A DNA stretch of 64,000 nt, from contig JAYWIR010000093.1 of the NCBI GenBank assembly GCA_036172245.1, forward strand, positions 62,001 to 126,000, given 5' to 3'. Of the stretch, positions 2,301 through 39,369 are shown one piece after another. A program made the position numbers and the translations under genes. How positions within the stretch are numbered: the first letter of the stretch is position 1; each line of letters opens with the position of its first letter. The notes under the pieces were generated by a model. That model was not told the origin of the DNA. It made no database searches and was given only the letters and a program-made list of their open reading frames with translations. This DNA is from Raillietiella orientalis (taxonomy: Eukaryota).

Positions 2301-3444
2301 CGACAACGCTGCATTCTTAAATTTGCTCGCTTGCCTGCTGTTTTTTCTGGCGGCACGCGTGCTTTTTCTCCATCCTCCTCTCCTTCTTTGATTTTTTGGC
2401 CGTAGCCACCTGCCACCCAGGCTCCTGGCTTCTTCCCTCGACTTGTTCGGCGTTGTTCGCCGGGGTCTCGGGTGCGGCCTGGGCTTTGGGCGCCGGTGGC
2501 ACAGCCTTGGCGGCAGCTTTCGCCGCCAGCCTTTTCTGCAGCAGACGGGCGCGTTTTTTAAGGTTTCTCTTGGAAACCACCCGCACTGCTGCTTTTGGGC
2601 ACACCTCCCTCGTGTGACCCATTGTGCCGCATACTTGCCACTGCACGTTGGGACACCTCTTTTTGAGGTGGCCCGACGTATTGCAGAAGCCACAGTATTT
2701 CGGCTTCCCCACATACCAGAGGTCGACGGTGTCGCCTTCGACCACCAGATTGTGGGGAAGAGTGCAGCCCTCCCGAACGGTCACGCGCGCAGCAGTGAGG
2801 CCGTGTTGCAGCCCCGTGTAGTCCTCGAAAGGACTTACTTTCGTCCACTGCGCGTGGACCGTTCCGAACTGTTCCAGAGCGGCGCGAACCTGTTCTTTGC
2901 GCATTCGCGCGGTTACGCCTAACAGGTGGACCACCATGCTGCGGTCCGCCGTAGTGGGGAGGAGCCTGCGCGTCCCCATCACAACGGGGGTTTTTAGCAG
3001 TCGTTGGGCCAGCTCTGCATGTTTGCAAATGACCTCAACGTACTGACCCCCGCCTCGGATGGTCATAGCGCTGAGCTCCTCCTCTTTCACATCGAGAGCG
3101 CGCATGCCCTTCGAGAAGGCGCGCGCGCTCTCTAAAGAATATAAATTGCCTACCTTGTATAACAATGATGGGTTGCACCCCTCCTCTACATAGGCCGACA
3201 ATTTCGCCGCGGCTGCAGGCGATGGCGCCGACACAACGGCGCTCCACGCCCGCGCTGCAGCGGGGACCGGTTTTGTGGTAGCGGACGCCCCCACCTCCTT
3301 CGTCACTGAAGGTGACGTTTCCGCCGCCCTCTGGCACTCCACCTTCTCTAGAGGCGACGTTGAAGCCGCCACCTGGCACTCCATTTCTTCAGGAGGCGAC
3401 GTTGCCACCGCCCCCTGACACGCACTGGTGGTCGTGTCAGGCAT
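2301..3444 (-). pseudogene. Element B ORF1, gag-like with two CCHC zinc knuckles, truncated
   Basis: CGFCNTSGHLKKRC and (W)QVCGTMGHTREVC; ATG 3444 (MPDTT); interrupted at 2301. Confidence 0.85.
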
Positions 3445-3540
3445 TGCTGCCTGATCAACCTCCGAACCACACGACGCTTGCACTGGGGGAGACTTCCTGG
3501 CACGAGGAGCACCGAGAAAACACGTTCGCCCTATAGCGCA
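2301..3540 (-). mobile_element. Element B: 5' end and ORF1 of a LINE of the same family as C, cut by A
   Basis: Close to 19497-20693 (near-identical centrally, indels in N-terminal repeats); 5' motif at 3517-3527. Confidence 0.9.
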
Positions 3541-3554
3541 CAAGGCGTTCGATT
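3541..3554. repeat. Left TSD of element C (CAAGGCGTTCGATT); also the 5' flank of B
   Basis: Identical 14-mer at 20694-20707 on the other side of C. Confidence 0.9.
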
Positions 3555-3772
3555 TTCACTTGGATTTCGCCGGGGCTTTTATTGTAAAATAAACTTTTAC
3601 AAAGACGTGCGGTGGCTGTACAATTGCTCCAGCCACGCACGAAGAAACACAGAGCCTGCCGGGTCGCCGGTTCGCAGACCGGTACGGTCCACCACGGAAG
3701 CAGGGGGAAGCAAGAAAAAAACAAAAAACAAAACAAAAAAAGAAAGGAAATTTGGGAAGGTAAGGGAGGGGA

Positions 3773-6700
3773 TCACAGTTGCTGGTGGGGCCGTTGCATC
3801 CTTTGCAGGATGCCGGCAAGCTCCTTCTGTATTCCTGGATCCAGGTGGGGCCATCGGGACGCCCTCGTCAGGAACTGGGAGGCTGGCTGGATGGCACTCT
3901 GGTCGCATTGTCCTCCCGTAGCCTTGCTCCAAGCGGTGACGATCCCGCGTAGGCAGCACAAAGCTGCTAACGAGGCCGCTGGCCGAAGTGAGTCGGCAAC
4001 GAAGAGGGCTTTCAGTGCGTCCCTGGGGTTGCCGCAGGGGATTCCGATGGCCGCGGCAAAGCGAAACCAAAGGGGCCGAAGGGCAACACAATCCACTAGC
4101 AGGTGGGGGAGGGACTCCCGTTCCCCACAGCTGACGCAATTGGGGTCCACCGCTCCCCAGGTCCAGTGGTGTCGGCGGGCGTTGCAGGGGAGTCCCCAGT
4201 GCAGCAACAGGAGAGCCGACTCCTGCCATTTTAAGGGGAGGGCGGAAGTGTTCATGAGCACCGGGGGCCACTTCAGATGTTCAATGGGAACATCGAGCAG
4301 CGCGCCCCAACGCAGAAGTCCATTGGGAGGCGTACTCGGGGTCGCAGCGTCTGTTAACTGGCCCGTCTTCCACTCTCCTATCTTCTTCTCCTTTCCGGAG
4401 ATTGTTACTGTAACCACCCACTTCGCCGCAACATCGCTGTCCAGATCTTCCATCAGGGAGGGCAGCGCAGCAGCGAGGGCGGTTCTTCCTGCCCACGCTC
4501 TCTTCTTTGGATCCTCCAGGATCTCGCGGAGCGTGCAACTTCTGTAACCCCCAAACAGGAACCTTCGTTCCTGTTGGGAGCGTTGCATGCCGAACTGTCC
4601 CCACGTTCGAGCGGTTTCCTGCAACCAGGCACTACCGTTCAAAGGGCGACAGGTGAGCAATCCTGGGTTTTTGCGATACAGCGCAGCCACCCTCCGTAGC
4701 TGGAGTCCGCATCGGTTGACGCGGCGACGGAGTGCAAGAAAGGACGTGAGTCCCGTCTTGCCGGTGGCTTGCTGGAGAAGGAGACGTGCAGGGACGCACC
4801 AACAGGTGCACCACAACTCTGGAACGAGTGCCGACAAGCGGAACTGGAGCTGAAGCTCCAGCCGCTCCAGCATCAGGAGGCCGAGACCACCGTCCCGACG
4901 AGGAGCGCACAAGTCCTTTAAGCGGACTCGGGCCCTCCCGTTGCCCCAAAGGGAGATACGGAGGAGGTCCTTTGTCCGCTTTTTAATTCTCTCTGTGGGG
5001 GGGCAAACAAAAAGCAGTGGGCGGAGGAGAGGAGCCGCGAACGTGTTCCAAACCGCGGCTCGTTCAGGCAGGAAAAACCTTCCGCCTCGGAACGGGCCGA
5101 TCGCCGTCTCTACCTTTTGGAGGCAGCCGGACCACGCTTCCGCAGGGGAGTAGTCCCCCAACGGCACACCAAGGTACTTGAAGAACCTCACCGTGGGGAT
5201 CCCCAAACGGACCCAGTCCTGCTGCCCTGCCCACGTCGCACCAACTGGCATCATGGACGACTTCGCCCTGTTCACCGTAAGTCCGGTTCCCCGATGCAGC
5301 AGGTCGAAGAACTCCTCGACCGCCGCAGCCGGGGTGGACATAGGGAGGAGCAGCACAAGGTCGTTGGCGTATGCTGAAACGGCCGGCGTACCGGCACAGT
5401 CGTGCGGCAGGTGCGCCAGAGTTCCCCTGTACGCTCTCAATACCAACTCAAAGTAGGTACTGAAGAGCAAGGGGCTCAGGCTGTCTCCCTGCCGGATCCC
5501 ACGCCGCACCAGCACGCCGTGCAAGGTCTGCCCGCTGAAAGTAACATTGATGAAGGCGTCGCGCCAGCAGGAGCGCAGATAGGCCACTTATGAGGCCGAG
5601 AAGCCCAAGCGTTCCAGAAGCTCCAGAAGGAGATTCTGGTCGACGCAATCGAATGCTTTTCGCAAGTCGATTGCGACCGCAAGGGCTCCCTCCCCCACCC
5701 GACCATCCAACCCCTTGCCGGCGCACGCACCGGAATTCCGACTGCGCACCAAGCTCCGTTCATGTTGGAGCTCTAGCCAGGTGGAAGCGTGGAACAGGTT
5801 CGCCTCCATGCTTCGCCCGGGAACAGCATATGTCTGTTCCGGGCTGATGAAGATGTTGGCAACCCGTCCCAGACGCTCTGCCCACATCTTTGCTATCAAC
5901 ATGGCGTCCGCATTCACTATTGTGATGGGACGCAAGTTGTTCATGCTCCTCAGATTTCCTCCCTTAGGGAGGAGCCGCCCCTTTGCCGAACGAAACGAGG
6001 CGGGAACGTCGCATGTTTCGCGTATCAGCAAGGTGAGTTGCTGTACCAGGGGGGTAAGCTCAGCCGCGAAAGTTTGATAAAACTTCGCGGGCAGGCCGTC
6101 CTCCCCTGGAGCCTTTCGCCTCTTGAGCTTTCCGATGGCCGAGAGGATCTCGTCCATCGTGAAAGGCTCGTCGAGGGTCTTTCTCTGCTCCTCCCCGATC
6201 GCTGGAGCGCCTTCCGGAAGCAGGAGTCGTGAGACGTTCCTCTCCGGAGGTGCCCTGGCATACAGGGAGGAGTAGTAACTCCGCAGCAGGCCGCGGATTT
6301 GGGCGGGTGCCGAGTGCTCCTGGCCCTGATCGTCCAGTAAGCTGGCCGATCCGGACTGCCAGGCTTGCCTCTCGGCTCCCGCTTTGTATTCCGCCAGCCT
6401 GCAGATGTCGGGGGTCCTGACGTAACGACGGGCCTGCAGGTAGGCTCGTTCGTAACGGACCCCGGTCCCAAAACCCGTAGGTAGGCGGTGCAGAGGGAAC
6501 TCGTCGCAGAACTCGTGGACGTACCGCTTGAAGCGGTCCTAATCCTGGAGTGTCCGCAGCCTGAAGCTCCGTATGAACGTGCGGAGATGTTCCGCCGCGT
6601 CCGGGAGCTTAAGCCAGTCCCCTGGGAGACGCCACGCTGACGAGGGGGGACCCCTGTCGCGCGGGTGGATCTCGAGGACTAGCGGGCGATGGTCGGACAG

Positions 6701-7354
6701 CTCGCACGGTAACTTGCCGCGCCTGCCCACGCGAGGGCACAGGTGCTCGTCAAGAAACACGTGGTCAATGCTTTCTTCCATCCCCGGTGCACTGGCCAAC
6801 AAATTACAGGTGTGCACCGCCATGCACACCTCGTTGACCAGGTCACGCTCGGGATTCTGCCCATCTGGTTTCAGGCGAACGTTGAAATCGCCTGCAACCA
6901 GATGGGCATTCCGCACGCCTGCTTCGGTCATCCAGTCTCGCCGGAGGGCAAGGAAAAACTCTTTCCTCGCCCTCCTGTTCATCAGGTCCGTGCCGCTCGG
7001 TGCGTACACGTTCGTGATGATCAGATCGATCGAGTCGGACCACCTGAGAGTCAGCTGGCCGGCACGACCGTGATCGTCGAATCGCACGCCCCGAGCCGCG
7101 GCCTCGACGGCTGGCCGAAGCAGGTAGGCGACACCGCAACTTTTCGCTCTCCCACACCTGCACCATAGCCGCCCTCCGGAGATCCGTTCGATCTCTTGCG
7201 CTTGTTCTGCAGAGATCACGTGGATCTCCTGCAGCAGTGCAAGGTCGTAGGAATCCAGAAGGGCGGCCATGTCTCGTCTCCTGCCGGCGTCTGTCATGCC
7301 GTTCACGTTCCAAACGGCGATGCGCAGACGACGGCGGGAGGAGATTCCCGGCAT
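3773..7354 (-). pseudogene. Element C ORF2 (APE endonuclease-RT-Zn finger), disrupted
   Basis: WNVNG, LQEIH, NVYAP, AGDFNV, IDH, SDH; KAPGEDG, LRPIT, DLRKAFD, GIRQGDSLSP, YAND (YADD mutated), YLGVP; CVSCGERESLPHLLVDC. Stops at 6539 and 5588. Confidence 0.93.
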
Positions 7355-7953
7355 TACTGCTGGGAAGATCAAGGTGTGGGGGAGCCCTCCTCTTGCGAGG
7401 CGGGCGGGATGTCCATGGGGGTTTCGGCCTTCTCAGGCACCTGAGGCGCCTGTTCGGCCTCCACCCCCTCCATCCCCTCCGTGTCCGCGCGTGGGAGTCT
7501 CTGGGGCGACGGGTCCCGAGAGTTTCCCACGCTCATGGCACCCTCGCTTGCGGAAGCCATCTCTTCCCCTTCGACGGGGGAGACGAGCTTCGTTGGCTTT
7601 GTGAACTTACGTCCAGCCTTCTTGCGCGGTGCCGTGGAAACGGAGGCTGCGCTTCCGGCCTCCACCTCGGGGTCGGAAGTGGGGGACTCCTGAGGGGAGG
7701 CCGGACGCCTTACGGCCTTCTTGCCAGCCTTGGAGGTTTACACCCGGGTACGCCCGGGGCGTTTATTTTTTAAAAAAACAACTCTACATCCGCGGTACAA
7801 GGCCCCGCTCACGGCCATATGCACTGGACCTGCCGGGACGCCGGGACGCAGCCCAGCGTAGCGTTCCTCAGCAGCGAAGGGGGATGGGGATAAAACAAAA
7901 AGAAAAATTAAAAACATAAACAGACAAAAAGAAGTTCGAGGGCAGGGAAGGGA

Positions 7954-10900
7954 TCACTGAACGCTGTGAGGAGGGCCCATCCGTTGAAGGAAGCCCTTGA
8001 GGTCCGTCCGTATATTCCCCAGTTGGGGCCATCCGGCAGCTCTCCGCATGAAGCGTTGGGCGTATGGGACGACATCCCTCGCGTGTGGACCCACTCCTTC
8101 GTTATTGGCGTCGCTCCATGCCGCCACGATGCCACGGACACAGCACAAGGCTGCGATGGCTGCGGCTGGCTGCAGTGCGTCCTTCACGAAGAGGGGCCGA
8201 AGAACGTCTCTAGGGGTGCTGCCCGTAGGGAGACCTAGGGTCGCCCCGAACCGTTCCCAGAGGGGTCGGATGGCAGCACAATCCACAATAAGGTGGGGAA
8301 GCGACTCCCGCTCCCCGCACCTGGCACACGCAGGATCCACAGCTCCCCTCGTCCAGTGGAAGCGGCGTGCGTTGCAGGTTAGACCCCAGTGCAACAAAAG
8401 CAACGCCGACTCTTGCCACTTGAGGGGCAGGATCCTGGATTCCTTTAATACCGGGGGCCACTTCAGCACATCCGTAGGGATGGCGAGCAGCTCGCCCCAT
8501 CTCATTAGTCCACGCGGCTGGACGCTCGGGGTCGTGGCGTCCGCCAGTTCTCCTGTGGTCCAGCCGCTTAACATCTTCTCCCTGCCTGCGATCTGGCAGG
8601 TGACTTGCCACCTCGGCTTCTGGCAATCCTGAAGCGCCCTCAGGAGGTAGGGCATCGCCGTAGCAAGGGGGGTCTTCAACGCCCACCTGCGACTCCGAGG
8701 AAATTCCAGTATTTCCCGCAGGGTGCGGTTGACGTATGGGCCGATTCGCAGGCAGTTCATGTGGTTTTCGCTCCTCCGGTTCAGCTTAGCCCATGTGCCA
8801 GCAGACTCCTCCAACCAGGCGGAGCAGTTGGCGGGGCCACAAACCATCCAACCGTTCGTCTTCGCCAAGGTTGCTATGCGTCCGAGCATAAGGCCGCATC
8901 TTCGGATCTTCCGGCCAGGGCACAGAAGAAACGACGCGAGTCCTTCGCATCGGGACACACGCCTGGCGAGGTGGCGGGCCGGAACGCACCAAGGGGTGCT
9001 CCACATCTTCGCTGCGATGGCGAGGGTTCGCCACCGCAGCTGGATTTACACCCGCTCCAGCGTCAGGAGGCCAAGGCCGCCGTCCCGACGCGGAGCGCAC
9101 AAGTCCTGCAGAGGGACTCGGGGCCTCCCCTTGCCCCAAAGGGCGATGCGGAGGAGGTCCTTCGTCCTCTTTTTGCATTCTCTGGGGGCGGGGCAAACAA
9201 AAAGCAAGGGGCAGAGGATGGGGGCCGCGAAGGCGTTCCAAACCGCGGCCCGTTCCGGCAAGTGAAACTTGCCTTCCAGGAACGGGCCGATCGCCGTCTC
9301 GACTTTTTGAAGACAGCTGGACCACGCTTCCGCAGGGGAGTAGTCACCTAACGGCACACCAAGGTACTTGAGGCACCTCGCCGTGGGGATCCCCAGACGG
9401 ACCCAGTCCTGCTGCCCTGCCCACGTCGCACCTACTGGCACCACCGACGACTTCGCCCTGTTGACCTGCAGTCCGGTCCCACGGCTGAGCAGATCGAAGA
9501 AGTCTCCGACCGCCTTCGCCGGGGTGGAAATAGGTAACAGGAGCAGAAATTCGTCGGCATAGGCTGCTACGGCGGGCGTGCCGGGACACGAGCTAGGCAA
9601 GGAGGCCAGAGTCACCCTGTAGGCTCTCAGCACCAACTCAAAGTAGGTGCTGAAGAGCAGGGGACTCAGGCTATCTCCCTGCCTGATGCCCCGCCGCACC
9701 GGCACGCCATGCACCTTCTGACCGCTGAAAGAGACGGAAATTATCGCATGGCGCCAGCAGGAGCGCAGGTAGTTGATCAAGGAGGGTGGGAAGCCCATAC
9801 GACCCAGGAGCTCCAACAAAAGCCCCTGGTCAACACAGTCGAACGCCTTATGGAGATCGACTGCGAGCGCTAAGGCCCCCTTCCCCGCCCGGGAGTCCAT
9901 TACCTGCCCTGCTGGCGGCCCCAAAGTGGGGTTGCCGATTTTTCCTTTCCCTTCCTTTTGACACCTCTGCGCGTGCATCCACGTGCTCGCGAAGAAGAGG
10001 TTGGCATCCATACTTCGCCCGGGAACAGCATATGTCTGCTCCGGGCTAATAATGGATTCTGCCACCTGCCCCAGACGCGAAGCCTATAGCCCGGCAACCA
10101 ACTTGGCGTCCGTATTCACAATCGTGATCGGACGCCAGTTGTTCAAATTCCTAAGGTCTCCCCCTTTCGGAAGGAGCCTCACTCTGGCTGACCGAAACGA
10201 GGCGGGAACATCGCCTTCGTCTCGGATCAGCCTTGTCAGCTGAAGCAGCAGGGGCGCCAGCCCTTCCGCGAAGCTCTGATAGAACTCCGCGGGCAAGCCG
10301 TCTTCCCCTGGAGCTAACCGCCTCTTGAGCCTTTTGATACCGGCGAGAATTTCGCCGGTGGTAAAAGGCTCATCGAGGCTTAACGACTCCTCCTCCCCTA
10401 TTGCCGCGGCACCATCCGGAAGCAAGAGCCGAGAGGCATCTTGATCCGGGGGCGCTCTGGCGTAAAGGGAGGAATAATAACTCCGCACGAGATGCCGTAC
10501 CGACGCCGGGGACGAACATTCCCGGCCCTGGTCGTCCAGCAAGCTGGCCCACCCGCATTGCCAGGCTTGGCGTTCGGCCCCGGCGCGGTACTCGGCCAGG
10601 AGACAGACATTAGGGGTTCTCTCGTACCTACGAGCCTGTAAATAGGCCCGATGGTTGCGAGTACCCTTGCCGGATCCGGGGGGCAGGCGAGCCAGGGGGA
10701 ACTGCTCGCATAACTCCCATACCGATTCCTTAAAAAGGTCCCAGTCCTGGAGATTCCGGAGCGTGACGCATCTCAGGTATTCGCGAAGGAGTTCCTTCGC
10801 ACCTGAGAAACGCGTTCAGTCCCCCGGCAGACGCCAATCCCTGGATGGCAGTCCTTTGTCACGAGGCCGCACCTCGAAAATTAGCCTGGAATGCTCCGAC

Positions 10901-11090
10901 AATGTCGACGCAACCCTCCCCCGTTTGCCGACCCGTGAACACAGGTCAGCGTCGAGGTAGACGTGGTCGATGCTGCGGACCATTCCCCTCTCACCCGCGA
11001 ACAAGTTGCGCTTACGCATGGCGGCGCACAACTCGTTCATCGCGTTCTGTTGTGTTTCTGGCTCACCTGTTAGAAAACGGAGATTGAAAT
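7954..11090 (-). pseudogene. Element D ORF2, C-terminal part (end of EN, RT, Zn finger)
   Basis: FNLR, SIDHV, APGEDG, NWRPIT, DLHKAFD, GIRQGDSLSP, YADE, YLGVP, CARCGERESLPH; stops 10816, 10084, 9046. Confidence 0.92.
11082..11090. repeat. Left TSD of element E (GATTGAAAT; right copy GATCGAAAT 16994-17002)
   Basis: 8/9 match flanking E; removal restores the GDFN endonuclease motif of D. Confidence 0.75.
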
Positions 11091-11403
11091 TTATCACCCG
11101 GTCACGCCGGGGCGTTTATTAATAATAATAAACTGGTCAGGGACAATTCCCCCAGCCAACAGAACGATAGAGAACATAGAAAAATTACCGGCACGCAGGC
11201 TTAGTAAATAAACCGCTCGCAGCGTGGGGGGAATGAGGGGAAACAAACAAAAATCAAAAACTGGAGGGAAGGGCCAAGGGTTTTTGGTTAGGCTCCGTAC
11301 TCACGGGGATTTAAACGATAAGCACCTTAAATGTTCCGGAGCCTATGGGGACGCGGGTGTACAATAAAAATACAAGATTAGTTTATGGAGGGTAGGGCAA
11401 TGA

Positions 11404-14400
11404 TCACCGCGTTGGCCGCTGCTGAGGGTGTGTAAACCGGCGGTGTATTGCGGCGAGATTCCTTTTTGTCTCCTCTGTCAAATGAGGCCATCTAGCGGAT
11501 GCTCCTATGTTGAAGGATGCTTTGCTGATTACCTCTTGGTGCTGTCCGTTGATTACCAGCGCCTGGCGGACGGAAACTATCGCGCGTATGCAACCGATGG
11601 TTGCAATCCTTGCGCTTAGTGACAGCCCGCACGGCGTGAAGAATCGTCGCAGCAAGTCTCTTGCGGTGTCCACGGGATGCATTAGTGCTGTTGCCATCCT
11701 ATGATACAGTCCTTGTAGGACACCGCAGTCCAGAAGTAGGTGCGGAATCGACTCCGTCGATCCGCACCGAACGCAGTTCGCAGACGCAAGTCCCCCGGAG
11801 TCACGATGCCAACGCTCGTTGCACTGAAAACCCCAGTGAACGAAAAGCAGCACGGCTTGTTTCCAAGCAAGGGGGAGCAGCGAACTGTCCATACACTGTG
11901 GAGGGACTACAAGTTCTTCGGGGGTGACAGCAAGTTCTTCTGCCCACCGGAGGAGTCCCTTTGCAGTAACACGAGGAGTGGCGGCGTCCGCCAACTCACT
12001 TGTCTTCTAGGTGCCAAGGAGTTTGGTTCTTCCCGCTATCGTGCGGGAAACCTCCCACCTCGCCGGTTGGTAACTGTCGTTTTTTGCCCTGAGGGCAGAC
12101 AGCGCTGCGGCAAGAGGCGTGGCAGCCAGGGTAGAAAACTTCACCTCGTCCTGCAGTACTTCTTCCAAGGATCGTGGAAAAAATTTGCGCAGGGGGCGAA
12201 GATCTTCAGGGCGTATTCCTTGGAACGCCGCCCAGGATTCAACAGACTCCTGCCGCCAAGCTTCAAAGTTCATTGGGCGGCAGGAGATCCAAGAGTGTGC
12301 TTCCAGAAGTGCGGTCAACTGCCGCAATGGAAACCCGAAACCCCGCTTCCTGTATTGAGTGCCCGGCAAAAGCGAGAGAAATTCTCCGCTGCCGGCGCAT
12401 CTCCGCAGGAGAATGCGGGCTGGCACACACAGGGGGGATGTCCATAGCTGGGCACACAGTGCCAGCAGTCGGAACTGCACCTGCAGTCCGATTCGCTCCA
12501 GTGTCAGGATACCCAAACCAGCATCCCGACGCGGAGCTGACAAATCTTTAAGGCGGATCCTGGATCTCGCCGGACCCCAGAGAGCGTTCCTGAGCAGGCG
12601 CTTAGTCCGCTGTTTTGCCGCATAGGGGGGGTCCAAAACAAAAAACAGGGGACGGAGGAGGGGGGCCACAAAGGTGTTCCATATAGTCGCCCGTTCCTGC
12701 AAGGTAAACTTGCCGTTAAAGAACGAGCTGATGGCCAACTCTGCTTTCTGAAGACAGTCCGCCCACGCTTCGGCTGCGCCGAAAGCGCTCAACGGAACGC
12801 CAAGGTACTTAAAGTACCCGCCCGTGGGGATCCCCAGGCGGATTCAGTCGGACTGCCCCTCCCACGACGTACCCACAGGAACGACCACGCTCTTCTCTCT
12901 GTTCACGCTCACGCCCGCTCCCCGACGAATCAGGTCGAAGAAATCCTCGACACTGGACGCCGGGGTGGACATGGGGAGCAGAAGAAGCAGGTCATCAGCG
13001 TAGGCGGCCACGGCAGGCGTTCCCGGGCAGGAGCTTGGCAAGTGAGACAGCGTCAGCCTGTATGCTCTTAGCATTAACTCAAAGAAGATGCTGAAGAGCA
13101 ACGGGCTTAAGCTGTCGCCCTGTCGGATGCCCCTACGAACGGGAATATCATACACGCGGCAGCCGCTAAAAGTGATGCAGGTTAGCGCGTGGCGCCAGCA
13201 CGCGCGCAAATACAGCAGGAGTTGCGCCGGGAACCCAAGGCGTTCCATAAGCTCCAAAAGCAGCTTCTGGTTTACGCAGTCGAACGCCTTGTGGGGATCG
13301 ACCGCGACCGCCAAGGCACCTGGCGTTCCCTCCTGCCGTCGGCGCCGGTTCTTTTTGCCTGCGGCAGTGACTTTCGCAGCAGCCTGGCTTTGCTGCGCCA
13401 CAACTTCCTGCAGCTGCATCCATGTACGCGCGAAAAGGATGTTCGCCTCCATGGATCGTCCCGGAACCGCGTAGGATTGTTCCGGGCTCACCACAGATTC
13501 CGCGATTCTTCCTAACCGCGCGACCCACAGCTTGGAAAACAACTTGACGTCCGAGTTCACCAAGGTGATCAAACGTTAGTTGTTAAGTTGGCGCAAGTCT
13601 CCGCCTTTCGGCAGGAGACGCACCTTCGCTGAGCGGAAGGAATCAGGGACATTCCCGGATTCACTCATCAGCGTCGCGAGTTTAAGCATCAAGGGAATGA
13701 GCTCCACTGCAAAGCACTGATAAAACTCTGCAGGGAGCCCATCCTCGCCTGGCGCCTTTCGTCTCTTCAGCCCAGCGATGGCGGACGAAAATTCATCCGC
13801 CGTGAAGGGCTCGTCGAGACGTTCGCGTTCCTCCTCGCCGACAACACGAGCATCCTGAGACAGGAGTATCTCAGAAAGAATATCCTTTGTCGGGGATTCC
13901 GCGTAGAGCGAGGAGTAGTAGCGTCTCACAATGCGGCGTACTTCGGCTGGGGCCGAACATTCCTGGCCCTTGTCGTCCAACAGGCATGCTGCTCCGGACT
14001 GCCAGACCTGGCGCTCGGCCCTCGCCTTGTACTCGTCGAGACGCCCGACATCCGCGCGTCTCGAAAACGTGCGGGCCTGCAGAAAGTCTCTACTGTTGGC
14101 CACGCCCTCTCCGGAACCGCGTGGAAGCCGGTGCAAGGGGAATTGGCAGCAGAACTCGCGGACAGATCTTTTGAGATCGTCCCAGTCCGCAAGTTCTTGA
14201 ATGGCAAAGCCCCGGAGGTATCCACGTAGATGCTCCGCAGCCTCCGGTTGGCTAAGCCAATCCGCCTGCATCCTCCAGCTTTGCAACGGAGGCCCCCTGC
14301 CTGGCGGAAGGATCTCAAACTCCAACCTGTGGTGGTCAGAAAGCCTAGTCAACAATCTTCCTCTCCTACCCACACGCGAATGCAGGTTTTCATCGAGGAA

Positions 14401-14996
14401 AACGTGATCGAGCGATCTTCCCATTCCAGGTTCGCTGACCATCAAGTTGGCGGCGTGCACGGACGCGCACATCTCGATGGGCAGCGCGCGCTCCCTCGGG
14501 CGGCTCCAATCGTCGGAGAGCAGGCGGACGTTGAAGTCCCCAGCGACGAGGTGCGCCACTTGGAAGCCGGAGTTGTTGAGCCACTGGCTCTGCACCTTAC
14601 CAAAGAAAGCTACTCTTTCTTCGAGGTAGCGAGAGCCACTCGGCGCGTAGACGTTCGTAACGACGAGATCGATGGACTCGGACCACTTGATGACAAGCTG
14701 GCCTATCCGTCCGTTGTCATCGAAACGAACACTACGCACCGCTTCCGCCATTTTTCTCTCACGAGGAACGCGACGCCGCACGTGTGTGCGCCGCCGCACC
14801 GCCAATGTAGCGTTCCGCCTGCGCGCTCCTCGATTTCGGCTGCCTGCTCGTCGGAGATTACGTGAATCTCCTGCAGCAGCGCGAGGTCGAAGGGGCGCAG
14901 GGCGTTGGCTACTAATCGCCTCTTCTCGTCGTTCTGCAGTCCGTTCACGTTCCAACACGTTACGGAGAGACGACGAGAAGACGCGATTCCCCGCAT
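11404..14996 (-). pseudogene. Element E ORF2 (APE-RT-Zn finger)
   Basis: WNVNG, LQEIH, NVYAP, AGDFNV, SDH, KAPGEDG, KAFD, GIRQGDSLSP, YADD, CVRCGSTESIPH; frameshift near 14760 and Trp-position stops 13576, 12844, 12007. Confidence 0.93.
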
Positions 14997-16915
14997 TACT
15001 GCTGGGAAGGTGGCAGCTTTTTGCTCGCTTTATCCGGCGAGCAGACGGCGAGAAGCACGACTGGCTGGAGGGGACGGTCGCCACCGTCCTCTGTCGTGCT
15101 GCATGCATGTAATGCCTCCACGCCAGGCTGAACCCCGTCGGGTTTCGTGGAGACTTCGCGTTGCTTCGCGGCGAGCGTTGCCTGGCTGCCTACTATTAAT
15201 CGGTGCGCACACGCTTTCGAACGAGTTGTCCTCGTCTCGGTGATCGGAACGGCATCCATTTCGGAGTCCGACCGGCGCATGTTCGATCGGGTTTCGGCCT
15301 TCCGCGAAGCAGTGACAGGTTCTGCTGGATTGACAGCTGTCCTGTTTTCGTTTTCCGTCACCAGAGCATCGCTTTTGGTGACGGCTGCTTTCCCGGCGCG
15401 CGCGTTTTCAGCGTTCTCACGCGCAGTTGCACGAGGGACCTTTGCTGAAGTCTTCTTTACTTCATTACGGTTCCTCACTCCGCGTGGCGCCGTAAATGGA
15501 GATTGTGCTCCATGGCCATCTTTGAAGCCATCCGCGTCTTTGGACGGGAGCACTTTCGATGGCTCCGACACGCTCGTCATAGACGCTGCTTTCGGAAGGG
15601 CTTTTAATCCCTTCGTTGGCATGGCATCCGCGCCAGTCGAGAGCTTGCTCTCCGACTGCGATGGCGTGAGATTTTTCTTCGCTTTCGCGGTGTTGGATCG
15701 CGACGTGGATTTTTTTTTGCCGACTTTCGAAGTCGACACGGCACAACCCTTCTTACCCGATTTGGGCTTCTCAGCCACTGCAGGAGGTGAGGGAATGGAT
15801 CTGACGGTACTGGAAGTGTCCTTACCGCCGTTGTCCATTGGCGTCCCCGCCGGTTGCTCGAACTCCGAGAGAGCCGGGCGTGCTTGGGAAGGACAGCTAT
15901 TGCGTCTAGGGGGACTTACCATTGCCCCGGATTCCCCGCACCCTTTCTTTTGCGGCTGATCTGCCGCGAGAGGGGGTGCGCAGGGCTTCGCGTGCGAGGT
16001 TTCCTGCTGCTCTTGGGCGACATTCCGCCTCGCGTTTTTACCGAATTTCTGCCGTGGGGTCTCCAGGTTTTTCGCAAATTTTTTCTTTTTATCCGCGCTT
16101 TGTTTTTTAAAATGGAGCTCCGCGGCTGCCTTTTTTCGCAAAAGATCCGGGCAATTTTTCAATTGGTGCCCGGATAGTTTGCAATAACGGCATTTTCCGG
16201 AGGGGCATTTATCCAAACAATTCCCCTCCTTTCCGCATTGCTCGCACGTTTTTACTTTGCCAGAGAACCACAGGTGAACGACCGTGTCTTTCACCTGTAG
16301 TTTGGTGGGCAGCAGACGGCGGTCCGGCATTGTAAGCCGGACTCCAGCGACTCCGCTGTGTATGGACGGGAAGTCCTTGAGGTTGCTACGCACCCTCCAC
16401 AGCGCATGGACCGTGGCGAATTTCGCCAACGCGTTCCGAATATCAGTATCGGAGATTTCCGACTCTATGTCGAAAATCTCCACCACAAATGAGTCGTCCA
16501 TGGCGGCCGGGAAGACCTTCTGGCCACGGATCGACAACGGGGTGTGCAGCAAGCGTTGCACAAGTGCAGCGTCTTTGCAACGCACCTTGAAATAGCCCAT
16601 GTCTTTTACGGGCATAATGGCGAGAAGGTCCTCCTCCCGCACGCCAACACGGGTCAGTTCATCGTTGAACTGATTCCCGTCGCGCGCAGAAAGAAAACCA
16701 CTCACCTTATATCGGAGAGCAGGTCTATAGCCTTGGGCTACGTATGCCCGCAACTCCGACTCGTCGAGTGGTTTCCCTTTGACGGCTGCTGTGGCAGCAA
16801 CGTCAGCAAATCTCTCCATTGGCGAGAAAGACGAAGTGGAGGCGGCCGTCGGTTCCGCGATTGCAGATCCGGATGCTGTTCCTCCAACTTCAGTAGCTTC
16901 AAGTTGGGTCGACAT
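14996..16915 (-). CDS. Element E ORF1, gag-like nucleic-acid-binding protein (two zinc knuckles, long K/S/A-rich tail); uninterrupted
   Basis: Open frame from ATG 16915 to TAA overlapping ORF2 ATG; CEQCGKEGNCLDKC and CRYCKLSGHQLKNC. Confidence 0.85.
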   Translation of the reverse strand: MSTQLEATEVGGTASGSAIAEPTAASTSSFSPMERFADVAATAAVKGKPLDESELRAYVAQGYRPALRYKVSGFLSARDGNQFNDELTRVGVREEDLLAIMPVKDMGYFKVRCKDAALVQRLLHTPLSIRGQKVFPAAMDDSFVVEIFDIESEISDTDIRNALAKFATVHALWRVRSNLKDFPSIHSGVAGVRLTMPDRRLLPTKLQVKDTVVHLWFSGKVKTCEQCGKEGNCLDKCPSGKCRYCKLSGHQLKNCPDLLRKKAAAELHFKKQSADKKKKFAKNLETPRQKFGKNARRNVAQEQQETSHAKPCAPPLAADQPQKKGCGESGAMVSPPRRNSCPSQARPALSEFEQPAGTPMDNGGKDTSSTVRSIPSPPAVAEKPKSGKKGCAVSTSKVGKKKSTSRSNTAKAKKNLTPSQSESKLSTGADAMPTKGLKALPKAASMTSVSEPSKVLPSKDADGFKDGHGAQSPFTAPRGVRNRNEVKKTSAKVPRATARENAENARAGKAAVTKSDALVTENENRTAVNPAEPVTASRKAETRSNMRRSDSEMDAVPITETRTTRSKACAHRLIVGSQATLAAKQREVSTKPDGVQPGVEALHACSTTEDGGDRPLQPVVLLAVCSPDKASKKLPPSQQ

Positions 16916-16993
16916 CGTCGTCAAAATGTACGACGCCAAGATGAAGCGGATGAAAGCACGGAGACGAGAGCGAAGAAAAACACGTCCGCACTC

Positions 16994-17465
16994 GATCGAA
17001 ATCTCCCGCTATCAGGTGAGCCTTCCGCACGTTCGTGTTCGCAAGCCAGTCGCGATTCAGAGATTCAAGCAACCTGCTACGGTGGCTGTATCCATTTTCA
17101 CCGTTTGGGGCGTACACATTCGTGACGATCAGATCGATCGAGTCGGACCAGCCGAGAATCAGCTGACCGACCCGACCGTCCTCATCAGAGCGCACGCCCT
17201 TCACGGCAGCGTCGATGGCCGGCTTCACGAAGAAAGCGACCCCGCAGGTGTAGCGGATGCCGCATTGCCAGTTCAGCCGACCCCCTGCGATCGTCTCGAT
17301 CTCCTGGACGTCCGCCGCGTTGATCACATGGATCTCCTGCAACAGGGCCAGGTCGAACTCCCGCAGGGTGTCGGCTGTATCTCGCCTGTTACCGTCGGCG
17401 CGCAGCCCGTTGACATTCCAACAGGCGGCGCGAATCCGACGGTGACTGGCGAGCCCAGGTGTCAC
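16994..17465 (-). pseudogene. Element D ORF2, N-terminal endonuclease half
   Basis: CWNVNG, LLQEIH, TNVYAP, HLIAGDF, cut by E. Confidence 0.9.
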
Positions 17466-19212
17466 TCCTGAGAAGGTGGCAATGCGGCGTCCGCCACCTG
17501 CTGGGGCGGGACGCTATGTGGAGGAGGTGGGTCGGTTGCTGAAGGCACCTGGTCCCTTTCGTCCATAGGTAACGGCGCGTCTAGCGGGTCACCCACAGGT
17601 GGGGTCGCGCCTACCTGTTCGTCCTCCTCCATGGAGGCGGGCTGTTCAGGGTCGGCGCCTGCAGGGGGGACTTCACCCCCTGTTCACCCTCCTCCATGGG
17701 GGTGGCCGCATCGACGGCTTCCGAGCGTGGGAATTCCTCCTCCGAATTTCCCAAGCTGGCGACGGCTTCCGTCTTCTCCTCCTCGCTGGTGGAGGGGAGG
17801 CGCCTCCTGGGCTTCTGGGACTTGCGTCCCGACTTCCTGGGGGGTGCCTCCGAGGAGGAGGATGTGCTTCCGGCCCCCAGGTCTAACTCACCTTTGGGGG
17901 CCTTCCTCGCCGGAGCCGGCCTTCGCACGGCCTTGCGCGAGGGGTTCTCACGCTCGGCCAGCGTGACCGCGAGCTCCTCCGCCGCCTGCGCGAACGCGGC
18001 GTCCGCGGTTTCGACCGCCGCTATGTCGCGCGGCTCACCCTCTGTGTAAACAGAGGGTTCGCCGTCGCGAGCCTCGGGCGCAGCGGAAACGGCAAGGGGA
18101 GGATCGACGCTCCGGGTGGCAATCTCGGGAACGACGATTCGTTCCAGTGCCACCGTGCACTGGCGCAAAGTTTTCGAGCACGGACCGGGTTTTTTCGGCT
18201 TACCGGCCGTCTTGCGCTCTTTGCTCTCCGCGGGTGGGAGTTTCCTCGGCTTTCTGGCCTCTACAAGCTTCCATCCCTCTTCGCCTTCCACCGTTTCAGA
18301 AGGTTTATCCTCCGGCTTACGCTCCGGAGGTTGAGGTGTTGACAGCTTGTGCTGGCCCTTTTCTACTTTAGGTCTAGAGACCTTTGAAGCACGTTTCCCC
18401 TGCGCTTTTTTCGCGGCAGGGGGAACCGGGGTGGGGCGTTTGGGACACACGCGCCGAACGTGGCCCCGCTCCTTGCACAAATGGCATTGTATATTGGGAC
18501 ACCTTTTACGTAGGTGTCCCACGGTATCACAATGCCCGCAATACCGGGGCTTCCCTACATACCACAGGTCGACGTTTTCTTGCGCCACCTGTAGTTTGTG
18601 GGGAAGCCCACAATTCTCCCGTACGGTGACCCGCGCTGCAGACTGCCCACCAAAAAGGCTATCGAAGCCGTCGAAAATGGAGGGTTTCGGCCACAGTGCG
18701 TGCACCTCACCGTATTTTTGTAATTCCTCACCAACCGCTGACCGCGTCATGCGGCTGGTGATGCCAGTCATGTGGACCACCACGGAGTGGTCCATAGATA
18801 CTGGCAGGATCTTGCGGCCGTCTACGTTCAGCGGCGCATGGATAAGGCGGTGAGCCAAGGTGACATCTTTGCAGACCACCTCGACCCGCTGCCCACCGCT
18901 GAGGACGGAGAGGCCGTCCAGATCCTTCTCTGTAACATTCGCGTCCTTCAACGCTTTGCTGAAGGCGCGCGCTGTCCGGCCGTCGAACAAGTTGCCTACC
19001 TGGTAGACAAGCGATGGCTTGTACCCGGAGGCCTTGTATGCGGCCATTTCCGCCATGGCTTCTGCGCTGGGCGCGGCCAACATGGCGCTCCATGTCCTCG
19101 GCGTGGCTGGGGATGATTCCGGGGCGGCTGCCCCTGCTCCAGTAGGCTGTGGGGGCGAACTAGCCTCCCCCACTCCCACCTCCATCGCGGTGTCCTCTGG
19201 CGTCGTGGCCAT
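17466..19212 (-). pseudogene. Element D ORF1 (two CCHC knuckles)
   Basis: ATG 19212 (MATTPED); CGHCDTVGHLRKRC, CHLCKERGHVRRVC; stop at 17611, about 150 bp before the ORF2 start. Confidence 0.88.
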
Positions 19213-19311
19213 TGGATACCGACGATGTACACAAAACACCACACAGAAGAAAAAGCGCTTTCCTACTACTCTTTGGGGAGTGAAGGAAAAACACGTCCTC
19301 CTACTGGCCGC

Positions 19312-20597
19312 GTAGGGTTCTGGCTGCAACGAGGCTGCCAGCTCCTCCGCGGCTCGCGCGAAGGCTACGTCATCGATGGTGGTGTCGATGACGGACTCTG
19401 CCGCCGGCTCGCTCCCCTCGCTGTTGGCAGAGTCAACAGAGGGGAGGTCGTCGGTAGCGGCGAGTTGTTTTTCGCAGCTGTCGGGAATACGCTTCACGAC
19501 AACGCTGCATTCTTTTATCTGCTCGCTTGCCTGCTGTTTTTTCTGGCGGTACGCGAGCTCTTCCTCTAATCTCCTCTCCTTCTTTGAGTTTTTGGCCGTT
19601 GCCAATTGCCAGCCAGTATCCTGGCCGGCTCTCTCAACTTTTTCGGCGTTGGTCGCCGGGATATCGGGTGCGGCCTGGGTCTTGGGCGCGGTTGGCACAG
19701 CCTACGCGGCAGCTTTCTCCACCAGCCTTTTCTGCAGAAGCCGGGCACGTTTTTTAAGGTTTCTCTTGGAAACCACCAGCACTGCTGCTTTAGGGCACAC
19801 CTCCCTCGTGTGAGCCATTGTGTTGCATACTTGGCACTGCACGTTGGGACACCTCTTTTTGAGGTGGCCCGACGTATTGCAGAAGCCGCAGTATTTCGGC
19901 TTCCCCACATACCAGAGGTCGACGGTTTCGCCTTCGACCACCAGTTTGTGGGGAAGAGTGCAGCCCTCCCGAACGGTCACGCGCGCAGCAGTGAGGCCGT
20001 GTTGCAGCCCCGTGTAGTCCTCGAAAGGACTTACTTTCGTCCACTGCGCGTGGACCGTTCCGAACTGTTCCAGAGCGGCGCGAACCTGTTCTTTGCGCAT
20101 TCGCGCGGTTACGCCTAACAGGTGGACCACCATGCTGCGGTCCGCCGTAGTGGGGAGGAGCCTGCGCGTCCCCATCACAACGGGGGTTTTTAGCAGTCGT
20201 TGGGCCAGCTCTGCATGTTTCAAATGACCTCAACGTACTGACCCCCGCCTCGGATGGTCATAGCGCTGAGCTCCTCCTCTTTCACATCGAGAGCGCGCAT
20301 GCCCTTCGAGAAGGCGCGCGCGCTCTCTGAAGAATATAAATTGCCTACTTTGTATAACAATGAGGGGTTGTACCCCTCCTCTACATAGGCCGACAATTCC
20401 GCCGCGGCTGCAGGCGATGGCGCCGACACAACGGCGCTCCACGCCCGCGCTGCAGCGGGGACCGATTCTGTGGGGGCGGATGCCCCCACCTTAATCGCCT
20501 CCGGGGGCGACGTTGCCGCCGCCCCCTGGCTCTCCATCGCCTCTGGGGGCGGCGTTGCCGCTGCCCCCTGGCCATCCCTGGTGGTCGCGTCAGGCAT
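19312..20597 (-). pseudogene. Element C ORF1, N-terminal part (continues at 7354-7736)
   Basis: CGFCNTSGHLKKRC, CQVCNTMAHTREVC; frameshift ~20221 and stop 19702 relative to B. Confidence 0.88.
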
Positions 20598-20693
20598 GGC
20601 TGCCTGATCGACCACCGAACCACACGACGCTTGCACTGGGGGAGACTTCCTGGCACGAGGAGCACCGAGAAAACACGTCCACCCTGGAGCACG

Positions 20694-20793
20694 CAAGGCG
20701 TTCGATTGCGTGGACCAGGTTCTCTTCTAGGAGCTTCTGGGACGCGTGGGCTTCCCTCTCTCCCTGATAACTTGTTTGCGCTCATGCTGGCGC
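20694..20793 (+). pseudogene. Short RT fragment of a related LINE: the target into which B and C inserted (first 14 bp are the right TSD)
   Basis: Translates KAFDCVDQVLF*ELLGRVGFPLSLITCLRSCWR, homologous to RT of A/C/D/E. Confidence 0.85.
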
Positions 20794-21900
20794 ACTTCGA
20801 TGATATTCCTCCGTCTTATTGAGCTTCAGTCAGTCCCTTGGCAGAAGCCACGCTGACGAGGGGGGGCCCTTGTCGCGCGGATGCTTTTCGAACACGATCC
20901 GGCCATGTTCCGACACCTCAGGCGGTCACCTTCAGCGCCTGCTTACGCAAGAGCAAAGGTGCTGGTCAAGGAACACGTGATCGATGCTGTGTTCCTTGGC
21001 CGTATCTCCGGCCAACAAGTTGCGCGTGTGCATTGCTGCACACAACTCGTTGAGGCGGTCGTTGAGCGTATCCGGCGCATTTGGCAGCAGGCGCAGGTTG
21101 CTATCACCTGCGATCAGGTGCGCTCTGCTGACGCCGGCTCCGGTCAGCCAATCGCGTCTCAGGTCAAGGTAGAACTCTTTTCTTGCCTTTTCTATCGACG
21201 CGGAGTTTCCGCTAGGAGCGTACAGGTTGGTGACGATCAGGTCGATAGAGTTGGGCCAGCTGAGAGTCAGCTGACCGACTCGACCGGCGTCATCGAACTG
21301 TTCGTCCTTTATTGCGGACTCGATAGCTGGCTCATGTAGGAAGGCCACACCGCTTGATTTCGCCGTGCCGCTGCCCAACAGCAGCCGTCCACCCCAGATC
21401 CGTTCGAAATCCTGGGCTTGATCTTCGGACATCGCGTGGTTCTCCTGCAGCAGCACCAGGTCGAACGATGCCAGGGTGGCGGCTACGTCACGCCTCTTGC
21501 CGTCGTCGCTCATTCCTTTGACGTTCCAACAGGAGATAAGCAAACGACGCCGACAGGCGATTTCCGGCATTATGGTTGGTAAAGTGTAGTTGCGTCACCT
21601 GCCGCGGGGCAGTTGTTGGGGATGTCCCTAAGGACGAAGGCCTCTTCAGGCTCCTGGGGCACCTGTGCGACCTCCATCACCTTCATCCCCTTCGTCTCCG
21701 AAAGTTGTGTTCTCTCGGGCGATGTGTCCGGGGTTTCCCACGCTCATCGCTCCCTTGCTACCGGAAGCCATCTGATCTCAGCATCCTCTCGTCCGACCTG
21801 TTTTTTTTCCGACTTGGGCGTCTCTCGCCCCGTAGAGGCGGCGGGCTACGTGCACAGCTTCCGGCGCGACTCCCTTGCGCTCGGAGCGCGAGCTCGAGTC
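20794..21900 (-). mobile_element. Element F: LINE fragment (ORF1 C-terminus, TAATG, endonuclease domain)
   Basis: CWNVKG, LLQENH, NLYAP, HLIAGDSN, SIDHV; CATTA at 21568-21572; right boundary approximate. Confidence 0.85.
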
Positions 21901-39290: not shown

Positions 39291-39369
39291 TCTTATCTCC
39301 CTCACTTTACCTTCCAAGCGCTGACCTCTGCTGGTGACTGCTCCGGGCATAGAACTCATCCGGAACACG

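Follow-up and report, generated by a model that had tools for sequence, protein, structure and literature searches.

The window, that is the whole stretch of 64,000 nucleotides of Raillietiella orientalis contig JAYWIR010000093.1 (assembly GCA_036172245.1) that was analysed, is occupied from its first position to ~21.8 kb by a dense, GC-rich nest of related APE-type LINEs (Table 1), with a GC content of 55-62% in the first 22 kb as compared to 43-57% in the remainder. The LINEs of the nest measure ~5.6-5.9 kb each and encode an ORF1 with two putative CCHC knuckles and an RRM-like region as well as an ORF2 with endonuclease, RT and zf-RVT. Two motifs are common to them, GGACGTGTTTT close to the 5' end and AATAAA-GCCCCGG... 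at the 3' end, and a poly(A) tail is absent. Their assignment to the APE-type LINEs follows from colinear minus-strand frames with Pfam matches to Exo_endo_phos (E 7.9e-14) and RVT_1 (best E 1.8e-18), the match to zf-RVT (E 1.2e-4) falling short of Pfam's cut-off, and the nearest solved RTs are those of human LINE-1 ORF2p and R2 (E ~1e-12). The elements B, C, D and A3 all possess the 5' motif and an ORF1, in the translations of which two CX2CX4HX4C motifs can be read; the database matches of these knuckles are sub-threshold (Pfam AIR2-like_ZnK4, E 0.0046; PDB AIR2, E 0.0021). A word-indexed protein search returned no homologue of ORF1 and one match for the C-terminal half of ORF2, for which an exhaustive search of 1.84 billion representatives yielded 848 matches at E<=0.001, a single one of them at E<=1e-30, the next-best match being 28% identical. 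With ORF2 proteins that are 47-61% identical (39-53% different), at least five diverged families are present in the nest. A 3' stem-loop was considered and rejected in favour of a conserved sequence motif, as short stems were found in four of the five ends with z-scores of -0.4 to -1.7 and the copy in C was unfolded. Beyond 21.5 kb, the 125 ORFs of >=110 aa gave a single Pfam match, a weak RVT_1.

Table 1. Elements and boundaries of the LINE nest, in window coordinates.
Feature	Position	Strand	Description	Landmarks and matches
P	1..2299	+	3' part of a LINE that leaves the window at the left edge; antisense insertion in the ORF1 tail of B	RVT_1 in ORF 175-1458 (Pfam); 51-64% aa identity to the other RTs (tblastn); 3' motif AATAAACGTCCCGG at 2270-2283; end ...GGGTAATAAA at 2299
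B	2300..3540	-	5'-terminal 1.24 kb (5' UTR and ORF1) of a LINE of the B/C family, truncated at 2300 by P	Frame 2320-3555 open over 412 codons, zero stops; 5' motif GAACGTGTTTTCT at 3515-3527
TSD, left copy (CAAGGCGTTCGATT)	3541..3554	+	Separates the 5' end of B from the 3' end of C	Exact match
C, 3' part	3555..7733	-	ORF1 end/ORF2 start, APE endonuclease, RT, zf-RVT, 3' end	Exo_endo_phos in 6542-7432, RVT_1 in 5591-6538 and 3776-5587, zf-RVT in 3776-5587 (Pfam); 3' motif at 3570-3583
D, 3' part	7734..11085	-	Endonuclease end, RT, 3' end; nested in the ORF1 tail of C	RVT_1 in 9049-10083 (Pfam); 3' motif at 7754-7767; end ...GGGTGTAAA
A3	11091..16997	-	Full-length LINE of 5907 nt inside the endonuclease of D, between the codons for GDF and N	ORF1-like, APE and RT matches (Pfam, tblastn); 5-bp TSD ATTTC at 16998-17002 and 11086-11090 (junction sequences)
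D, 5' part	16998..19321	-	5' UTR, ORF1, N-terminal half of the endonuclease	5' motif GGACGTGTTTTTC at 19286-19298; ORF1 homology 19209-18241 and APE 17498-16995 (tblastn)
C, 5' part	19322..20693	-	5' UTR and ORF1	Alignment to B; 5' motif at 20668-20680; single ORF1 frameshift near 20220 and in-frame TAG at 19702-19704
TSD, right copy (CAAGGCGTTCGATT)	20694..20707	+	Doubles as the KAFD codons of the host RT fragment H	Exact match
H, host fragment	20694..~20797	+	Piece of an older LINE from the same superfamily that encodes RT motif A; runs antisense to B and C	
E	20798..21773	-	LINE fragment, endonuclease region	Exo_endo_phos in 20935-21594 (Pfam); 56% aa identity over 284 aa to the endonuclease of C (tblastn)

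In terms of nesting, A3 lies within D and D within C, P lies within B, and both B and C lie within H. The original prediction had described C as bounded by a shared 14-mer, which holds. C is not a single 17-kb element: the span 3555-20693 comprises one LINE of 5551 nt (5.55 kb) and two nested ones, with D inside C and A3 inside D. When A3 is excised in silico, the endonuclease frame of D runs uninterrupted from 17513 to 10819. Contigs of X1, an independent sequencing run and the sole public one found, join position 7733 to 19322, i.e. C without D, and 11085 to 16998 with five shared letters and a shorter side of just 26 nt; each joint is represented by one contig, with short sides of 26-34 nt and 85% likeness. 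The nested structure is backed by the order of the domains, by the reading frames that resume upon removal of the inserts and by the X1 joints.

The exact copies of CAAGGCGTTCGATT flank C on both sides and the left one adjoins the 5' end of B, which bears out the layout that had been proposed. Each of the two 5' ends is followed, 13 nt downstream, by a common G(G/A)ACGTGTTTTC motif, and the TSD is sandwiched by tandem copies with precise junctions. As the 3' tail of C ends in A's, the true TSD of C amounts to 12-14 bp. With up to two mismatches, the 14-mer matches five times in the window as compared to 0.66 matches expected, a count that was reached in none of 100 shuffles, and two of the three inexact matches (9837-9850 and 13278-13291, minus strand) represent the KAFD codons of resident LINEs; the variant in A3 agrees with the 14-mer at 13/14 positions and that in D at 12/14. 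The right flank, 20695-20802, translates into KAFDCVDQVLF, one in-frame stop and ELLGRVGFPLSLITCLRSCWRTSM; H comprises KAFDCVDQ... and 33 codons. This translation together with the tblastn match of H to the RT of P (E 8e-7) confirms that the flank carries an RT motif on the strand opposite to B and C. At the DNA level, H is 68-76% identical to four resident RTs across ~101 nt. The remnant extends over just ~100 nt before the minus-strand fragment E begins, and the junction between the two is sharp and without filler. Sequence comparison hence supports a target of B and C that encodes RT motif A (KAFD) of another LINE, in opposite orientation.

B (2300-3554) can be aligned to 19496-20707 with 89.3% identity over 1255 nt, and this identity is a mosaic of a ~98% identical centre and flanks of 84-87% (13-16% divergence). 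At the 5' end, the 14-mer is identical at all 14 positions, six of the following 15 nt are mismatched, and identity is again complete over the subsequent 64 nt (64/64). Together with further substitutions and a 42-nt indel in an N-terminal repeat, these differences agree with the claim that B and C belong to one family and are yet distinct. The central block of 213 codons (639 nt) differs at 12 sites (1.9%) with a dN/dS of ~1, and so similar a block calls for recombination or gene conversion as its origin. The flanking coding blocks show a dS of 0.18-0.23; dN/dS ranges from 0.5 to 1.0, so that the divergence does not directly reveal selection. The ORF2 of C, with 1219 codons, contains just two stops and no frameshift. 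In simulations of neutral decay, two or fewer stops in this ORF2 had a probability of 0.025 at 6% and of 0.003 at 8%, and the absence of stops from the 412 codons of B one of 0.035 at 8%. Because the frames are too intact for decay in place, most of the 13-16% flank divergence is older than the insertions. Two other ideas were tried and ruled out: an annealing of C cDNA to the 5' UTR of B, i.e. homology-guided 5' joining, does not fit with six differences between B and C in the first 15 nt, and APOBEC-like strand-biased editing behind the stops at Trp codons does not fit with equal numbers of lineage-specific G>A and C>T changes (56/49, 63/62 and 118/117).

From our point of view, the best account of these observations, to which we assign a probability of roughly 0.55, is a Zepp/Cnl1-like LINE nest in which B and C, two members of one low-copy family, would have inserted in turn, in the same orientation and 5'-complete, at one staggered 12-14 bp cut in the strand antisense to the KAFD codons that an older LINE fragment carries. 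The putative cut would be ...CAAGGCGTTCGATT^GCGTGGACCAG... (...TTCGATT^GCGTGG...), and the second insertion would have re-used the target that the first one had regenerated, leaving the TSD sandwiched between the copies. The most likely cause would be an endonuclease with a strong preference for the site, possibly aided by target-derived read-through RNA, and later insertions would have placed D in C, A3 in D and P in B. To the left, the model predicts the remainder of B, then (A)ATCGAACGCCTTG and then the upstream half of the RT of H on the plus strand, so that the 3' end of B, a third copy of the TSD and the rest of the host RT would all lie beyond the window. With regard to the original prediction of two independent insertions at one nucleotide, the common nucleotide, the common orientation, the complete 5' ends and the sandwiched TSD are all observed, and it is the succession of independent events that we infer from them.

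A different explanation would be a cluster-level habit of landing in resident LINEs, caused by chromatin or survival bias, in which case the shared nucleotide would be a local hotspot or lesion and KAFD recognition would play no role. Of the six element ends with a readable flank (B, C, D, A3, P and F), the first five are indeed located within LINEs of this superfamily, as is a further P-like 3' end in an X1 contig, and we could discern no nick-site motif common to the six sites. Zepp (PMC8226300) and Cnl1 (PMC9942834) are likewise described, in the accessible parts of these accounts, to nest in their own resident copies. A regional preference, however, leaves the nucleotide-exact shared junction unexplained, since the positional chance of such a coincidence within a cluster of ~20 kb is about 1 in several thousand, and the 12-14 bp TSD of C also differs from the TSDs of 0-5 bp at D and A3. 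We thus consider the hotspot unlikely.

Slightly less probable still is a single insertion followed by a local tandem duplication of the element and its TSD, through slippage or microhomology repair on the 14-bp repeat, with subsequent drift and patchy gene conversion. B and C are adjacent, in direct orientation and maybe the only copies in the genome, given the low X1 depth over their 5' part; the 98% identical central 639 nt with their dN/dS of ~1 would fit recent shared ancestry or conversion, and neutral drift could also account for the dN/dS of 0.5-1.0 in the more divergent blocks. Nevertheless, a flank decay of 13-16% split over the two copies predicts ~7-10 stops in the ORF2 of C, where two are seen and frameshifts are absent (P 0.003-0.025), and the 412 codons of B are free of stops (P ~0.035-0.1). 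Moreover, the succession of 14/14 identical, 6/15 different and 64/64 identical positions is unlike uniform drift, and conversion tracts would have to stop at the first 15 nt. A simple tandem duplication, which the original prediction had named as the outcome that would speak against it, is hence disfavoured by both the mosaic identity and the intact frames.

We give a low probability, somewhat below that of the duplication, to the notion that the 14-mer, and for C also the 100-nt RT fragment, represents a 5' leader of the RNA carried over from the source copies, with the unit of C, 14-mer and B having formed by template jumping or read-through and having been inserted as a whole in E at ~20797. 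Such a leader would account for the shortness of H and for the sharp junction with E, but two rare events are needed, and sources of the B type and the C type must still both have been located downstream of one 14-mer, which merely relocates the same-site problem. On a simpler account of E and H, a minus-strand LINE may have entered E with a twin-priming-like 5' inversion, and H may be its inverted 5' segment. Finally, a mis-joining of repeats during assembly is very improbable: the region is LINE-rich and highly repetitive, 0.33 of the sampled words for 20300-21300 are present in X1 and, among the matches listed, no X1 contig bridges 3540/3555 or 20693/20707, but the junctions are clean and coherent, TSDs are found at C and A3, frames resume upon insert removal and empty-site joints exist in independent contigs.

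Returning to successive insertion of B and C at one cut, the double hit at a single 14-base spot suggests that the family may aim at the KAFD site, with the evidence coming from one locus and two copies. The X1 depth over the 5' part of B and C is 4.3-9.3 as compared to 15-42 over ORF2 regions, and the family may therefore have no further copies on which such a trait could be tested. A metagenome scan for the junction TCGAAYGCYTTN{11,20}GRACGTGTTTT returned six loci of 34-46% GC, none of which (0/6) showed tblastn likeness to LINE proteins and which we regard as chance matches; a scan of a collection of genome contigs with 25 nt of the shared 5' UTR gave no match. The window also contains four ends of sister families (D, A3, P and F), which are located at other, non-KAFD sites, three of them (D, A3 and P) inside LINEs, in the case of D with a TSD of 0-5 bp, and the flank of F at 41306 reads CTTTCCCGGG.... 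As these ends lie outside KAFD, the superfamily is not generally site-specific, and nesting alone accounts for the target being a LINE. The KAFD site of P itself (~233-246) is uninterrupted; that the KAFD sites of P, C, D and A3 are empty was dropped as counter-evidence, since D, A3 and P are later than C or B and the sites may postdate the activity of B and C. One could speculate that the endonuclease of B and C, possibly helped by target-derived RNA, recognises antisense KAFD and thereby inactivates competing LINEs at a site that they could not change without loss of the RT, which would make the family a parasite of parasites with an ever renewed safe harbour. We put this forward as a tentative idea that is rather doubtful at present.

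Some of these features have precedents in the Tx1 clade, an animal clade for which the accessible part of the literature lists the insertion of Tx1L in Tx1D and of Keno in U2 (Kojima, 2015; PMC4494074). According to the same source, Tx1-Mar and SINEU-3 target Mariner-N4_AMi, Tx1-8_Crp and Tx1-4_AMi target LTR retrotransposons, and tandem SINEU-3 copies that sandwich a 16-bp TSD were read as sequential insertions by a target-specific Tx1 machinery (PMC4494074). As far as described there, the likeness comprises an APE-type LINE with a target within another transposable element and in fixed orientation to it, and a long TSD (16 bp there, 12-14 bp at B and C) that is sandwiched by tandem copies. 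The difference is that the target of B and C would be the RT motif-A coding sequence of a LINE and that its specificity is deduced from one locus as opposed to hundreds of copies; target specificity was assigned in that work where >20% of the copies of a family had the same kind of flank (PMC4494074).

Zepp and ZeppL, from Coccomyxa/Chlorella and Chlamydomonas, resemble the present nest in that LINEs are nested in resident LINE copies and the cluster forms a local GC peak, with 61% GC for Zepp in Coccomyxa as compared to 53% for the genome in the portions of these reports available to us (PMC8226300, PMC3446292). In those accounts, Zepp arrays consist mostly of 3' ends that result from 5' truncation and of one family nesting in itself, whereas here four elements are 5'-complete and at least five diverged families nest in each other. 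Insertion into resident copies and a GC-rich cluster are thus shared with Zepp, while a predominance of 5'-truncated ends of one family is not seen in the nest. Cnl1 of Cryptococcus differs in forming subtelomeric single-family arrays, and the accessible part of that study describes no RT-motif target (PMC9942834). None of the papers on target-specific and nested LINEs that we consulted describes a LINE that targets the codons for RT motif A in another one.

Overall, the locus is best placed as a Zepp/Cnl1-like nested LINE cluster in which one family is probably site-preferring. It represents one well-documented double hit, which justifies a genome-wide count of flanks and is too little to claim a targeting behaviour. 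LINEs with sequence-specific insertion are known to use rRNA, snRNA and tRNA genes, microsatellites and telomeres as targets, and also some DNA and LTR transposons. The KAFD coding sequence is among the few nucleotide stretches that are conserved across diverged LINE families, and a LINE that aims at the coding sequence of a catalytic motif of other LINEs would, if true, represent a new kind of target and a clean case of competition between transposons. It would further imply an APE-type endonuclease with a long and defined recognition site and could provide a possible mechanistic account for the growth of Zepp-like or centromeric LINE nests.

The 14-mer CAAGGCGTTCGATT occurs twice without mismatch on the + strand of the window (3541-3554 and 20694-20707), and at up to two mismatches there are five matches vs 0.66 expected, a count reached in 0 of 100 shuffles. 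Of the three inexact matches, those at 9837-9850 and 13278-13291 on the minus strand correspond to the codons for KAFD in reverse transcriptases (RTs) of resident LINEs. Since 2300-3554 aligns to 19496-20707 (89.3% identity across 1255 nt), each 14-mer, read in the sense of the elements, immediately precedes one of two homologous 5′ ends, those of the minus-strand LINEs B and C, which lie on either side of the left copy. On the right-hand side, at the second copy, the translation of 20695-20802 is KAFDCVDQVLF*ELLGRVGFPLSLITCLRSCWRTSM; this host fragment, H, has a tblastn match (E 8e-7) in the RT of P, the plus-strand LINE with which the window opens, and shows 68-76% DNA identity to four resident RTs over ~101 nt. 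The layout described in the original prediction, i.e. the 14-mer pair, the B/C homology and a right flank reading KAFDCVDQ, is present. From our point of view, B and C would best be explained by independent, sequential insertion at one site, to which we assign, as a whole explanation, a probability of about 0.55.

The sequence between the 14-mers had been taken for C as a single element. Its bracketing by the 14-mers stands, whereas the 17.1 kb turned out, by Pfam and tblastn mapping, to comprise three nested LINEs, colinear and all on the minus strand. With the inserts removed in silico, the endonuclease frame of D is continuous from 17513 to 10819 and each ORF2 lies in one frame. In X1, an independent public sequencing run, contigs connect 7733 with 19322 (8 other letters intervening) and 11085 with 16998 (5 letters shared), as in a C-type and a D-type copy without the nested insert; each joint is carried by one contig, whose shorter side spans 26-34 nt at 85% likeness. 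In a further X1 contig, a P-like 3′ end (2294) followed by TTCAA runs into antisense sequence resembling D at 10748, the end of the endonuclease region, which would be another antisense LINE-in-LINE insertion elsewhere in the X1 genome.

Coordinates of LINE copies, fragments and ends in the window
Feature	Position	Strand	Remarks
C	20693..19322 + 7733..3555	minus	5551 nt; between the two 14-mers
D	19321..16998 + 11085..7734	minus	5676 nt; inside ORF1 tail of C; boundaries from junction sequences
A3	16997..11091	minus	5907 nt; in endonuclease of D at GDF|N codons; 5-bp target-site duplication (TSD) ATTTC; boundaries likewise from junction sequences
P	1-2299	+	terminates, with its 3′ motif, at 2299 within ORF1 tail of B
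E	~20798-21773	minus	endonuclease fragment right of H
F	41307-42473	minus	5′-truncated relative; flank unrelated
H		+	host RT fragment, only ~100 nt; junction with E near 20797
3′ ends with conserved AATAAA-GCCCCGGCG-N-CCGGGTGATAAA	2265-2299	+	
	3555-3589, 7737-7771, 11091-11125, 41305-41339	minus	
More distant LINE remnants	~31800-34300; 41307-42473	minus	
	~39350-40600	+	

Translations of ORF1 contain in all elements an RRM-like region and two CX2CX4HX4C knuckles, for which database support is sub-threshold only, and ORF2 matches Exo_endo_phos and RVT_1 as well as, below threshold, zf-RVT (Pfam). The 5′ motif G(G/A)ACGTGTTTT(T/C), preceded by 10-23 variable nucleotides, is common to B, C, D and A3 (four matches at up to one mismatch; 15 in all vs 6.06 expected at up to two), as is the 3′ motif AATAAA(N)G(Y)CCCGG to P, C, D, A3 and F (five exact matches; eight in all vs 2.59 expected at up to two mismatches). 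No poly(A) tail is present at the 3′ ends, whose terminal sequence is ...GTGATAAA or close to it. A short 3′ stem is possible in four of the five ends, yet it is not statistically distinctive; the end of C reads CCAAG, not CCGGG, and with the stem lost does not fold.

ORF2 protein identities of 61% (C-D), 51% (C-A3) and 47% (D-A3) imply that several diverged families occupy the same nest. Once inserts are removed, the minus-strand ORF2s of C (3776-7432), D (7957-17513) and A3 (11407-15189) span 1215-1261 codons in one frame with no frameshift; each has 2-3 in-frame stops, six of eight aligning with Trp in the other two elements. Lineage-specific changes are GC-to-AT rich and strand-symmetric (G>A/C>T = 56/49, 63/62 and 118/117), and the decay looks like a substitution-only process, possibly of the methyl-C or RIP type. 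Strand-biased editing as the source of the stops is rejected, given this symmetry.

Across 21500-64000, no ordinary genes were recognised among ORFs of at least 110 aa searched against Pfam; a weak RVT_1 match (32640-33038) is the only one for these 125 ORFs. An inverted repeat of 734 nt (24576-25309 and 60881-61614; 98.4% identity, copies 36 kb apart) is unrelated to the LINE nest. Public protein sets contain almost no members of this LINE lineage: in a search of 1.84 billion representative proteins, the C-terminal half of ORF2 has one close relative (70% identity; next best 28%), P0001 from a 2870-nt JGI metagenome contig, the only match at E<=1e-30, and a word-indexed protein search returned no relative of ORF1. 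X1 depth is 4.3-9.3 over ORF1 of B/C and the 3′ terminal 440 nt of C vs 15-42 over ORF2 regions, suggesting very few B/C copies. For further copies, a metagenome scan for the junction gave six chance matches and a scan of the genome collection none.

It had further been proposed that the B/C family targets the KAFD motif in the RT of other LINEs. In favour of this, two different, 5′-complete elements lie in the same orientation at the same nucleotide, and the TSD of C, at 12-14 bp, differs from those of D and A3 (0-5 bp); against it, one locus provides all the evidence. The four sister-family ends that the window contains occupy sites other than this one, three of which are within LINEs, and no nick motif shared by them is apparent by eye; the P-like end in the X1 contig likewise lies at another site inside a LINE. 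As sister-family ends nest in LINEs, nesting alone accounts for the target being a LINE; that such a general habit, and not KAFD recognition, is behind the shared site seems unlikely to us. D, A3 and P have intact KAFD sites (matching the 14-mer at 12/14 positions in D and 13/14 in A3), which is uninformative because these elements arrived after C or B.

Somewhat less likely still, B and C could be a tandem duplicate that drifted apart after one insertion. They belong, as predicted, to one family and differ by substitutions, a 42-nt repeat indel and their first nucleotides, and their alignment is a mosaic: the 14-mer is the same at 14/14 positions, 6 of the first 15 element positions are mismatched, a run of 64 identical nt comes next, and a diverged block including the indel follows. 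Duplication is favoured by a central ORF1 block of ~640 nt (B 2640-3280 vs C 19836-20476; 98% identity, 84-87% on both sides), in which 213 codons have 12 differences (1.9%) at dN/dS about 1. In the flanking blocks, dS is 0.18 (5′ coding block) and 0.23 (3′ block); the divergent blocks are low-complexity tails whose dN/dS of 0.5-1.0 is by itself no sign of selection. Drift after duplication would, however, entail ~6.5-8% neutral change per copy, for which ORF2 of C (1219 codons, free of frameshifts and with just 2 in-frame stops) and B (open across 412 codons) hold too few stops. Under simulated neutral decay, the probability of at most two stops in ORF2 of C is 0.115 at 4%, 0.025 at 6% and 0.003 at 8% change, and that of no stop in B 0.105 at 5% and 0.035 at 8%, so that most flank divergence probably predates insertion. 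The claim of two independent insertions at one nucleotide thus gains in that simple duplication with drift is disfavoured by simulation, and is held back by resting on one locus. The best-supported reading of the sequences is that B and C derive from different source elements; to explain their near-identical centre, the lineages would then have to have recombined, or the neighbouring copies to have undergone gene conversion later on, as the 98% block suggests. Annealing of C cDNA to the homologous 5′ UTR of B is opposed by the differing first 15 nt.

The junction of H with E (20790-20810) is sharp and without filler, plus-strand RT meeting minus-strand endonuclease: E runs in sense direction to the endonuclease end, followed by antisense RT, from KAFD+33 codons down toward lower coordinates. 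This geometry would fit the insertion into E of a minus-strand LINE whose 5′ segment was inverted, possibly by twin priming, a mechanism known from L1. That H and the 14-mer are a leader carried on RNA, not a local target, is a doubtful alternative, as source elements of both types, B and C, would still have to lie behind one and the same 14-mer.

Among known LINEs, Zepp and ZeppL (PMC8226300 and PMC3446292) and Cnl1 (PMC9942834) nest in their own kind. The GC contrast between the nest (55-62%) and the remainder of the window (43-57%) fits a Zepp-like cluster, whereas its full-length, multi-family make-up does not fit Zepp arrays as published. In the full-text literature searched, no LINE was described as targeting the sequence that encodes RT motif A in other LINEs. 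LINEs aimed at other transposons are described in PMC4494074, namely Tx1L in Tx1D, Tx1-Mar in a Mariner, and Tx1-8_Crp and Tx1-4_AMi, which aim at LTR retrotransposons. KAFD targeting as a trait of the B/C family is plausible, though unproven and for now tentative. In its favour, the B/C pair, with a TSD of 12-14 bp at C, shares the architecture of tandem copies sandwiching a 16-bp TSD in crocodilians, attributed there to sequential insertion by target-specific Tx1 machinery (PMC4494074).
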